From: an uncultured Methanosarcinales archaeon
GTDB lineage: Archaea; Nanobdellota; Nanobdellia; Woesearchaeales; GW2011-AR9
NCBI GenBank assembly: GCA_964360115.1
Contig: CAYHVV010000001.1
Span: forward strand, 1 to 36,197
Length of the DNA stretch: 36,197 nt
Direction of reading: 5' to 3'
The notes beneath the pieces were generated by a model that saw only the letters and a list, made by a program, of their open reading frames with translations, was not told where the DNA came from and did not search any database. Positions within the stretch are counted from its first letter, which is position 1. Every line of letters starts with the position of its first letter. Both the position numbers and the translations under genes were made by a program. This document shows positions 33,806 through 36,197 of the stretch, piece by piece.

Positions 33806-33865
33806 TCATTTAGCAGTGCAATAAAAAGAAAGATCAAAAATAGACAAATCAGGCTGGAAATCTAC
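33806..33865 (-). repeat. Duplicate of the 3' end of the transglutaminase-like gene (decoy C-terminus VDFQPDLSIFDLSFYCTAK-stop)
   Basis: 49 of 60 nt identical to 34741-34800 with no indels. The reading frame and the TGA (33806-33808, minus strand) are preserved. Confidence 0.8.
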
Positions 33866-33887
33866 AAAAGATCAAGGAGATACCTGG

Positions 33888-34703
33888 TCAATGATTTTCC
33901 ATTTTTCTTAACATCTCTTCAGAATAGATTCCTGTTTTGCACAACTGCTCTAATTCTTGATCTGAAAGTTTCAATAACTGCTCCAACCATGAAGTAATAG
34001 CTGTATTTTCAACGGAAGTTGCAACTAGATTAATGATAGTTATTTCAACTAGTCTTGTATATATTTCTTCCGTAGTTAGTCTGTCAATTTCATTTAGCTT
34101 CTCCTTTTTTTTAGTTAAGAAGACAACTATATTTGGAGGTTGATAGAAAGTATCTTCATGATCTATACTATTTCTTAATCTAGAATCAACGGTCGATTTT
34201 ATTTTAGCTAGAGAAATACTATATTTTCCTTCTAGTTCCTTAAGACATTCTTTTAGCAGTACCACGTTTAAATGATTTTTCTTAGGCTTTAATCCAGCCA
34301 ACCACACCAATCTTCTAAGATTGTTCCAGAATGATTCGAGGGACGATGCATAAGCTCTAGCTAAAGCTATTGCTGCCGTTTCATCATCTTTTGTTTTGTT
34401 TTTATAATCGCCAACTACTGAAGCCATTTCACTCATCCTTTGTATCATCATTATTCTTCTAGTGTCATCTATCAGCATACTACTATGAATGCTTCTTTTT
34501 TCCATCATCTTGCCTATTAAACTCGCATATTCCCTATGATATTCCAAGAATAATTTTAATAATGCTGGTTTCCCCGAAAATATGGGCAATGATGTTAAAT
34601 TTTTTGGGAAATTGTTCTGATGACTTATCATCTCTTGGATGCTTTTTCTTGGCTCCTTAAGAAAAATTTCTTGTCTCTTCCTTCTTTCTTCAAAGTGATC
34701 CAT
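33888..34703 (-). CDS. Orphan all-helical protein with an R-N-x3-H (HEPN-type) motif
   Basis: SRLRNSIDHED (Arg codon 34173-34175, His codon 34158-34160) matches the RNxxxH form of the HEPN RNase motif. The composition predicts helices throughout. No other family recognised. Confidence 0.45.
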   Translation of the reverse strand: MDHFEERRKRQEIFLKEPRKSIQEMISHQNNFPKNLTSLPIFSGKPALLKLFLEYHREYASLIGKMMEKRSIHSSMLIDDTRRIMMIQRMSEMASVVGDYKNKTKDDETAAIALARAYASSLESFWNNLRRLVWLAGLKPKKNHLNVVLLKECLKELEGKYSISLAKIKSTVDSRLRNSIDHEDTFYQPPNIVVFLTKKKEKLNEIDRLTTEEIYTRLVEITIINLVATSVENTAITSWLEQLLKLSDQELEQLCKTGIYSEEMLRKMENH

Positions 34704-34740
34704 TCTAATCTCAAAATTGAACTGATTTAAATAGTTTTAT

Positions 34741-36197
34741 TCACTTCGCAATACAATAAGAAGACGCATCAAAAATAGATAAATCTGGCTGGAAATCTAG
34801 TGTCTTAGTTTCGCCAGGCTGGATGACCCAGCAACCGATCTCTTCATCTTTTATTGCTCCGTTAGCATATATCGAAGCAATCGCACATCCTGCTCCTGGC
34901 ACTTCCCCGCTATTAGAAAACGTGATCGGCACGGAAGCGACAAAGAAGTCTTGTAAATTGAAACTTATTCCGCACTCACCAATATTCTTAGTTATGGAAG
35001 GAAGTTTGATGGTTGCATCTACAGGTAATATAACCTGAGGATTATTATTCCAGTCAAGTTTAATGATTTTAGTGTTTTCTTTATTCTGGTTGACATTATT
35101 TATTCCAGATGCTAAGGCATTATCAAAGTTTAGTGAAGTAGTTTCAATAGGCACATACACACCATCTTTGTTAATATATCCAGCGAAAGCATGTCCTGGC
35201 GTTAGGAAAATTACTGGCTCCATGCCTATCGCAGAAAGTAAGGAAGCATACAATACTGCATTGTCTTCACAGTCCCCAGCTTTGTTGGATAGTGTTTCGG
35301 TAGGGAATTGTACATAATCCCCCTGCTTGTTAAATGGATCATTGACATACTGAATGCCGTAGGCTCGCATGGATTCTAGAAGCCATCTCGCCGCTAATTC
35401 TTGCTCTTTCACTGTCCCTACACTGGATGCCGCTGCTAGTCCAGAAGTTGCCCTGCTCGCAAATTCTTTGATTATAGGGTGATTGGGTGTTATCCATGAC
35501 GAAATCTCATAAGGATTAGACCAATCCATGAAATTCTTGCCCATCAGTTGCAGAGTTGCAGTATCGGAACTTGAATGTGGTCTATTGTGTTCATCTTCAA
35601 AGTTTAGCTGTATATTTGTTTTCAATTGCATCTGGCTAGTAATGTCTAAAGCCTTAGTGGTAAAATCTAACTTTACCTCTCTGGATTGTTGATCATTAAC
35701 GTAAATAGCTCCCAAGTTGATAATTTCATCATTGAAATAACTGTCAGGAGAAGATATTCTTACAGAAACATCTTTTGCCATAGAGTTTCCAGAATTAGAA
35801 ATGCTGAGAGAAGCAATTGTTCTTTCTTTTGCTTTGAGATAAGTTACGGATTTAAGACCATATTGCTGAAGGCTTGTTGTTAATACGGGCTTTAGTTCAA
35901 TGCATTGATTTTGTTCACACTTGTAACCAGTAGAACAACCTGCATCTTGACAACAATTCTCAGCTGTTTCTCCTTCTTCCTTTATTCCGTTGCCACAGAC
36001 AGCTAATTTTTTGCAGATGTTTTGATCGCAATCATATCCTTGTGGACATCCGCAATCTATGCAACAAGTGCTAGAATCTTCTCCTGATTCGCATTTCTCG
36101 TTGCCACAATACGTCTTTTCTATTTCTATAGCTTTTTCTACCGGAGCACAGCTAGATAATAAAAGTAACAAAGAAAGAGATAAAATTAGTATTTTCA
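34741..36197 (-). CDS. Transglutaminase-like (papain-fold) lipoprotein with a Cys-rich N-terminus; 5' end runs off the window
   Basis: GDCEDNAVLYASLLSAIGMEPVIFLTPGHAFAGY is the transglutaminase-core Cys ... His pattern. Reading upstream of the track's TTG start gives (M)KILILSLSLLLLLSSC, a lipobox, with the ATG apparently starting at window position 36198. Confidence 0.75.
   Translation of the reverse strand, partial: KILILSLSLLLLLSSCAPVEKAIEIEKTYCGNEKCESGEDSSTCCIDCGCPQGYDCDQNICKKLAVCGNGIKEEGETAENCCQDAGCSTGYKCEQNQCIELKPVLTTSLQQYGLKSVTYLKAKERTIASLSISNSGNSMAKDVSVRISSPDSYFNDEIINLGAIYVNDQQSREVKLDFTTKALDITSQMQLKTNIQLNFEDEHNRPHSSSDTATLQLMGKNFMDWSNPYEISSWITPNHPIIKEFASRATSGLAAASSVGTVKEQELAARWLLESMRAYGIQYVNDPFNKQGDYVQFPTETLSNKAGDCEDNAVLYASLLSAIGMEPVIFLTPGHAFAGYINKDGVYVPIETTSLNFDNALASGINNVNQNKENTKIIKLDWNNNPQVILPVDATIKLPSITKNIGECGISFNLQDFFVASVPITFSNSGEVPGAGCAIASIYANGAIKDEEIGCWVIQPGETKTLDFQPDLSIFDASSYCIAK

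Follow-up and report, generated by a model that had tools for sequence, protein, structure and literature searches.

We examined the 36,197-nucleotide (nt) contig CAYHVV010000001.1 (assembly GCA_964360115.1), referred to below at its full length as the window, and in particular a gene for a 271-amino-acid (aa) protein that lies between two similar copies of the 3' end of a neighboring gene. The window is part of the chromosome of a DPANN archaeon of the Woesearchaeota type and has a guanine-plus-cytosine (GC) content of 37%. It has the gene content of core chromosome, with ribosomal protein L15e, archease and CorA, and also encodes a Na/H exchanger and a giant protein of 3839 aa. Domain searches found no integrase, transposase or reverse transcriptase among the open reading frames (ORFs) of the 36-kb window, which also contains no tRNA genes and no Rfam matches. 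For convenience, the gene whose 3' end is duplicated is called here the host gene, the gene between the two copies is called the cargo, and the copy that is separated from the host gene is called the decoy. The features of the locus, in the order in which they are read, are the following.

34741-36171, minus strand: host gene, encoding a secreted transglutaminase-like protein conserved in Woesearchaeota
34740-34799, minus strand: real copy, consisting of the last 19 codons and TGA of the host gene and contiguous with the gene body (repeat and identity analysis)
34704-34739, minus strand: spacer from the host stop codon to the cargo start, as read from the sequence (37 nt if base 34740 is counted)
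33888-34703, minus strand: cargo, encoding a mostly helical 271-aa protein with invariant E123, E158, R177, N178 and H182 (ORF, alignment and AlphaFold2 model)
33866-33887, minus strand: spacer of 22 nt from the cargo stop codon to the decoy, with stop codons in the frame of the decoy
33805-33864, minus strand: decoy, a displaced copy of the last 19 codons and TGA of the host gene, without a start codon or upstream homology
33791-33804, minus strand: TATA-like box TTTATAAA, directly after the decoy stop codon and 5' of small ORFs and a 59-aa ORF
32489-33729, minus strand: downstream flank with the 59-aa membrane ORF and a 378-aa ORF, neither of which has family matches

The duplication of 60 nt at the end of the host gene, reported in the initial annotation, is borne out by the sequence: positions 34741-34800 and 33806-33865 (minus strand) are identical at 49 of 60 nt, contain no indels, and end in TGA in both cases. 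They translate to LDFQPDLSIFDASSYCIAK-stop and VDFQPDLSIFDLSFYCTAK-stop, respectively, and a shift of the comparison by one base (34740-34799 against 33805-33864) raises the identity to 50/60. The next-best ungapped match to the 60-mer in the whole window, on both strands, is 34/60, and the ungapped local score of the pair is 30, compared with a maximum of 12-14 in shuffled sequences. An independent repeat search recovers the pair as 33791-33864 and 34726-34799, with 78% identity over 74 nt; the repeat reaches 14 nt beyond the stop codon and covers a TATA-like box in each copy. The longest exact runs common to both copies are 13 and 12 nt. In the spacer at 34704-34739 a TATA-like box, TTTAAAT, is located approximately 24 nt 5' of the cargo ATG and can be regarded as a putative promoter; the box TTTATAAA next to the decoy probably served the downstream gene as its first promoter. 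The cargo is the sole gene between the copies, as had been described: the only ORF of at least 40 aa is the one at 33888-34703 (minus strand), which encodes the 271-aa protein with the RNSIDH sequence. No homology to the host gene was detected 5' of the decoy, where the boundary is sharp and its reading frame is closed by stop codons within three codons. None of about 10 distinct relatives contains a second, adjacent transglutaminase-like gene. The decoy thus does not belong to a longer gene, either here or in any relative, and the refuting condition named in the initial annotation did not arise.

The differences between the two copies are biased toward synonymous sites, which the initial annotation had proposed as a check. 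By the Nei-Gojobori method, the proportion of differing synonymous sites (pS) is 0.50 and that of non-synonymous sites (pN) is 0.11; of the 11 differences, 6 are synonymous and 5 are not (p 0.015). When five such pairs are pooled, pS is 0.48 and pN is 0.11 (binomial p 2.8e-6 against neutrality, same method), and the fraction of synonymous differences is 23/45 (51%), compared with about 0.31 expected if one copy were neutral (p about 0.003). Simulated neutral decay of the real end attains the similarity of the decoy to the sister ends in only 0.01-0.9% of trials, a result that largely restates the synonymous signal because the family profile was built on two sequences. At the nucleotide level, 49/60 positions of the decoy agree with the real end of the same gene, and the real end matches the corresponding ends in two sister lineages, L001 and L032, at 50/60 positions each; the decoy is equally distant from the real ends of all three lineages. 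The decoy peptide is identical to the working end of L032 at 17/19 residues and to the end of its own gene at 15/19. The synonymous bias, together with a divergence at the level of sister lineages, suggests that the decoy is a third, once-functional allele and not a decayed in-situ copy, and in sequence terms it does look like a once-functional gene end rather than a degraded version of the present one. Two origins of the decoy had been proposed earlier, an older event or a 3' end that the cassette supplied as a replacement. The latter fits better, given the synonymous bias, the family-like peptide and the equidistance, and the former is less well matched by the same observations.

We then compared the same site across relatives, with the following results.

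L001-L003 and L013: host gene 84% identical in nucleotides and 90% in amino acids; 498-nt insert with a 66-aa gene and three small membrane peptides
L032: host gene 83% identical in nucleotides; no decoy
L032, order of features downstream of the host gene: small membrane peptide, 5-kb MmeI-type restriction-modification/DUF2779 island, homologue of the 66-aa gene of L001, tyrosine integrase
Other relatives: host gene 70%, 67% and 46% identical in amino acids; different neighbors; no decoy

The insert in L001 is also followed by a decoy, in this case of 35 nt (IFDSSPYCIAK-TAA, 30/35 identical), which terminates at the stop codon. The exact L001 junction is found in four independent assemblies from four samples, and an overlap of 8-9 nt at this junction, ATTTTTGA, is the one candidate for microhomology. 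A single gene end is present in the relatives at 67-70% identity and in L032, and the downstream flanks are unrelated. The Phage_integrase gene of L032 (18384-19709) is located 7 kb 3' of the host gene, within a variable island. As a separate observation, the MmeI/DUF2779 island of L032 is flanked by direct repeats of about 100 nt (77% identity; 11629-11747 and 16681-16921), which are copies of a gene for a 35-aa membrane peptide; more copies are found at about 17035 and 17917.

We also scanned 179 ORFs in 13 loci for 3'-end decoys at the protein level and complemented this with a DNA-level version of the scan. Decoys downstream of six distinct genes exceed the null maximum, and none were found on the opposite strand or in shuffled sequences. 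A mirrored control with 5' ends matches only intact tandem paralogues and no fragments. The pairs at other genes, and one repeat that is possibly related, are listed below.

7534-8313 of the window, minus strand: CBS-domain gene, real 3' end 8236-8313 and decoy 7534-7611, 69/71 nt identical
5062-6516 of the window, plus strand: DedA/VTT gene, real 3' end 5062-5090 and decoy 6488-6516
237-1617 of the window, plus strand: possibly related non-coding direct repeat of about 105 nt, 237-344 and 1511-1617, about 90% identical
L004 (same as L024): PEPCK gene end, 5025-5066 and 5844-5885, 74% identical in nucleotides, around an RHH-PIN toxin-antitoxin pair
L010: end of an ArdC-N/M78 peptidase gene, 4922-4955 and 5817-5850, NLKAIAEGAKEIIEFVEGGL compared with NFKVIAEGSKEVIAYCESRL

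The CBS pair flanks a MazE/AbrB-ParE toxin-antitoxin pair (7666-8178) that is encoded on the strand opposite to the CBS gene. The CBS repeat covers the last 25 or so codons and ends 3 nt beyond the stop codon; its identity falls sharply across the first 15 nt or so, where the changes are synonymous. The DedA/VTT pair (real VIKGVLQSWLR, decoy LITGILQSWLR, LITGILQSWLRKT-stop) encloses a gene for a 412-aa LamG/Ig secreted protein (5230-6468), a non-defense cargo, and the decoy follows just after it. In L010, a 70-aa gene and an AsnC-type regulator precede the decoy, which lies just 5' of a homologue of the 271-aa protein. The PEPCK ends of L004 read KKFGDKMPKEILEEHAGLKERL and KKFWG*AALEIAEEHRGLKERL; this decoy contains a frameshift and a stop codon and is therefore partly decayed. 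In each case the cargo is one complete transcription unit with a flank of 19-150 nt, often of a toxin-antitoxin or defense-like type, and a comparison of the six cassette junctions revealed neither a convincing common motif nor convincing microhomology. The recurrence of this scar, in the window and in related archaea, points to repeated gene gain that does not break the target gene.

The non-coding repeat of about 105 nt flanks a wHTH-nucleotidyltransferase gene (434-970) and a gene for a 141-aa protein (973-1398) that looks like a HEPN partner of the nucleotidyltransferase. The repeat is relatively GC-rich and contains no ORF, and a further repeat is found at 183-205 and 1435-1458. A search of positions 1-1750 with Rfam assigned no family to it; it could represent the end of an unrecognized RNA gene used as an insertion site.

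We consider it reasonably probable that the 60-nt pair was left as a scar when DNA bringing both its own gene end and the cargo was inserted by recombination at the 3' end of the transglutaminase-like gene. In the incoming DNA, the 271-aa gene would have been joined to a diverged version of the last 20 or so codons of the host gene, a version that would have evolved as a working end in another Woesearchaeota lineage. Recombination inside this short homology would leave the host gene intact: one copy would become its terminal codons, and the other would be displaced 3' of the cargo as a non-translated decoy, which would remain beside the original downstream promoter. With respect to the route, we favor host recombination and rank a dedicated integrase second. 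Host recombination might proceed either by a single crossover of a circular cassette bearing a short gene-end "address" (a Campbell-type event) or by a homology-anchored exchange with one illegitimate join. It is favored by the absence of a recombinase from the cargo and the window, by six target sequences without a common motif, by boundaries of 59 and 35 nt at one gene, and by exact runs of only 12-13 nt. Directly observed are the duplication and its sharp boundaries, the bias toward synonymous sites, the recurrence of the scar at other genes and in relatives, and a window devoid of recombinases; the direction of import, the enzyme responsible for recombination and a possible circular intermediate are inferred.

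Several points weigh against this interpretation. None of the fetched relatives provides an exact empty site, because the downstream flank of the window (the 59-aa and 378-aa ORFs) is present in no fetched relative, and no donor in which the host gene adjoins the 271-aa gene was found in the search. No recombination breakpoint is visible in the body of the host gene. The arrangement seen in the window is supported by one assembly, and the synonymous bias of this pair alone is modestly significant (p 0.015, 11 differences). Finally, two points are shared with the integrase explanation considered next: the repeat lengths of 29-81 nt fall within the size range reported for archaeal integrase att sites, and a tyrosine integrase is encoded in the L032 island 3' of the same host gene.

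That explanation proposes an integrase-mediated mini-element, with the repeats as attL and attR, targeting of the 3' end and supply of a replacement end, the element being either non-autonomous and mobilized in trans or a remnant of a larger one. We regard it as unlikely. The architecture resembles that of e14 at icd and that of archaeal elements located 3'-distally in genes, direct repeats flank the insert and one of them serves as the working 3' end of the target, the cargo boundaries are clean, and the L032 integrase lies in a variable island. However, neither the cargo nor the rest of the window encodes an integrase, L032 has an integrase but no gene-end decoy, and two different boundaries occur at one gene. 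Six different target genes without a shared motif would have to be accommodated as well, and it would be unparsimonious to suppose that every such element had been reduced to a single intact transcription unit. The longest exact run of 13 nt is short, though possible for archaeal att cores. Scans of viral contigs, which could represent an attP-bearing element, found neither the cargo, the host gene nor the repeat.

In-situ duplication, either as a long target-site duplication from a filled-in staggered break or as a local segmental duplication at the time of cargo insertion, with the decoy decaying neutrally thereafter, would explain direct repeats around an insert and the lack of indels between them. 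We find it improbable, since the pooled synonymous fraction exceeds the neutral expectation, the decoy peptide is still family-like, and a sister-lineage level of divergence is reached although the cargo and decoy are not common to the sister lineages; moreover, the window has no transposase and the cargo ends carry no terminal inverted repeats. Still less probable is a tandem gene duplication, in which the body of a second transglutaminase-like gene was deleted or replaced and its last 19 codons were left. A paralogue under selection would account for the synonymous bias, and tandem paralogues of other genes do exist in the related loci L005 and L006. Against this, the two adjacent copies that it predicts occur in none of the relatives, homology 5' of the decoy is absent, and the cargo belongs to an unrelated conserved family; in addition, the pattern of retaining only the last 10-27 codons would have to be repeated at the CBS, DedA, PEPCK and ArdC-like genes and in L001. 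The least probable explanation, to which we give very little credence, is an assembly artifact, with variants of the locus from two strains fused into one chimeric contig. The metagenomic contig does end inside the host gene and the region is strain-variable, but a chimeric join requires the cargo end and the decoy to have a k-mer in common, which they do not (the longest exact run between the two copies is 13 nt); four independent assemblies agree exactly on the analogous structure of L001, and the 271-aa protein is recorded on two contigs in the database.

Two further candidates were rejected. A transposon target-site duplication is ruled out because the 60-nt copies are 82% identical and differ with a synonymous bias, because the cargo ends lack inverted repeats and because there is no transposase. 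The template repeat/variable repeat arrangement of a diversity-generating retroelement is ruled out because the 11 mismatches involve all four bases and because the window contains no reverse transcriptase.

Returning to recombinational insertion, we tentatively, and with considerable doubt, extend it to a recombinase-independent mobility of cassettes in Woesearchaeota, and perhaps in DPANN archaea generally, in which cassettes would carry a gene-end "address label" of 30-80 nt. Recombination between the two gene-end copies would release a single-gene or toxin-antitoxin cassette as a loop, and one crossover within the short homology would insert it again at the corresponding gene end of a related genome, leaving the target gene intact every time and a diverged decoy end as a scar.

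The cargo was described earlier as an orphan, a label that does not survive an exhaustive search with representative sequences, which yields 26 clusters, mostly of 258-283 aa and with 31-45% identity. An initial homologue search had returned one partial match only and a family-profile search four proteins only, and a look-up gave no exact record of the window's own 271-aa protein. An alignment of 21 members of the family shows an invariant R-N-x3-H motif (R177, N178 and H182), and the pattern Rx4-6H with a polar residue after the R, which is used to recognize HEPN proteins, is present in the family. The AlphaFold2 model (mean predicted local distance difference test score 87, predicted template modeling score 0.83) is mostly helical, with a three-stranded beta element after the motif. 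The description of the protein as HEPN-like is thus supported by the invariant motif and lacks support from Pfam, NCBIfam, PADLOC, PDB sequences or a significant fold match. Pfam gave no match to the 271-aa protein at E 0.01 and none to the 21 family members at E 1; PADLOC, NCBIfam and PHROGs gave no matches to the protein, a sequence-profile search of the PDB gave no HEPN matches, and Foldseek gave no significant matches of the model to the PDB. The best HEPN structure in the Foldseek results is the toxin 7ae6_B, at rank 25 (E 2.8, target-normalized template modeling score 0.46, probability 0.21), and an hhalign comparison of the family with the window's 141-aa HEPN-like protein gave a probability of 0.1%. 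We therefore treat "HEPN-like" as a reasonable lead from the motif and not as demonstrated membership.

In its resemblance to HEPN RNases, the cargo is all-alpha, has the invariant R-N-x3-H motif together with invariant glutamates, and stands alone in variable, defense-like neighborhoods; it differs from them in being approximately twice the size of a minimal HEPN domain, in having a beta-hairpin after the motif and in lacking any significant profile or fold match to HEPN families. The gene is a solo gene, and its neighbors are unrelated in the five neighborhoods that we compared (the window, L009, L010, L030 and L031), among which there is no conserved partner gene. These neighborhoods include genes for methyltransferases and for PD-(D/E)XK, ArdC/M78, PIN and SNF2 proteins, and their composition fits a patchy, accessory, conflict-type gene. 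The cargo is probably a conflict or defense-type protein with a putative R-N-x3-H (HEPN-type) active site. Its GC content of 0.33 is inside the range of the other window genes and is therefore uninformative.

The host protein has a marginal match to the Pfam transglutaminase-like family DUF553 (E 9.2e-5, 22.4 bits with a cut-off of 20.5), which is limited to residues 280-325. There are about 50 homologues at 37-90% identity among 69 matches altogether, and the few that bear source names are labeled as Woesearchaeota, Nanoarchaeota or Nanohaloarchaea. Residues 117-336 also match the N-terminal 240 positions of the NCBIfam family antiphage_ProA at E 1.6e-21, far under the family cut-off, and in the distant relatives L027 and L028 the gene adjoins restriction enzymes, AIPR, methylases and conjugation-like genes. 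The ATG of the host gene is lost at the contig end, where positions 36172-36197 stop one base short of it; this assembly break falls exactly at the host-gene locus, which is strain-variable. An identical end of the host gene is present on a 2,257-bp NCBI contig (P0097).

Several other features of the window were noted. An element of about 75 nt occurs at 3738-3813, 9434-9509 and 17662-17734 (the last in reverse orientation), with copies 89-95% identical, directly 5' of three unrelated genes encoding a cupredoxin, a CBS protein and a 338-aa protein. This element, which terminates in TTTAAATA and includes the 10-nt palindrome CTGACTATT..AATAGTCAG, probably acts as a promoter or operator common to the three genes. 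The genes for a 475-aa protein and the 338-aa protein share the N-terminus MSKRGQVTIF... (13694-13773 and 17743-17822), which is presumably similar to the class III (type IV pilin-like) signal peptides of archaea. The 3839-aa ORF (18771-30290) has no Pfam match and contains a unit of about 62 nt repeated at 24550, 26929 and 27916, in addition to more internal repeats.

DPANN archaea have tiny genomes, few recognizable mobile elements and no cultured genetics, yet the gene content of their strains is highly variable. A displaced gene-end scar offers a means, from sequence alone, to find recent gene gains, to date them and to identify donor lineages. If host recombination and not an integrase is the route, it would constitute a simple and general way to spread defense and toxin-antitoxin genes among relatives. 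The conserved 271-aa R-N-x3-H family is a candidate for a new conflict-system nuclease.

Among known systems, insertions of e14, a prophage of about 15 kb, and of phage 21 at E. coli icd likewise keep the host gene intact and displace its original 3' end to the far side, and the two ends differ mostly conservatively, the differences being synonymous in nature. The inserted element gives icd a replacement 3' end, while the original end is displaced as a non-functional duplicate, pseudo-icd' (PMC6379469). The e14 prophage, however, has its own integrase and a duplicate of 163 bp, whereas the structure described here consists of one 816-nt gene without a recombinase and a duplicate of 60 nt, and several genes within 36 kb bear such scars. 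Archaeal integrated elements are comparable in that direct repeats overlap the 3' end of a gene, the element supplies a new stop codon and the repeats are of similar size, those of crenarchaeal elements being reported as 29-69 bp (PMC6563490). They differ in being multigene elements with integrases or casposases, whereas the window cassettes are single transcription units without a recombinase, and in having repeats of near-100% identity, compared with 74-97% here.

Homology-facilitated illegitimate recombination and Campbell-type single-crossover integration are known from bacterial natural transformation. As in our case, a short homologous anchor admits foreign DNA and neither a dedicated recombinase nor a conserved site is necessary; the boundaries vary between homology-facilitated events, and therefore decoys of 59 and 35 nt at one gene fit this process. 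To our knowledge, homology-facilitated illegitimate recombination has not been described as a recurrent pattern specific to 3' ends, nor in DPANN archaea, and random illegitimate joins do not predict the tight, complete-gene cargo boundaries seen here. Integron cassettes are similar in being small, promoter-poor, single-gene or toxin-antitoxin units that enter the chromosome one by one, but here there is no IntI and no shared attC-like site, and each repeat copies the end of its own host gene. Diversity-generating retroelements also place a near-copy of a gene 3' end just downstream of it; in the pair described here the mismatches extend beyond the adenines of one copy, and the window has no reverse transcriptase. 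The kind of event that we describe is known, and what is new is that it involves no integrase, concerns single genes, recurs at several gene ends of a DPANN chromosome, and leaves a decoy that is kept as a diverged, functional-looking allele.

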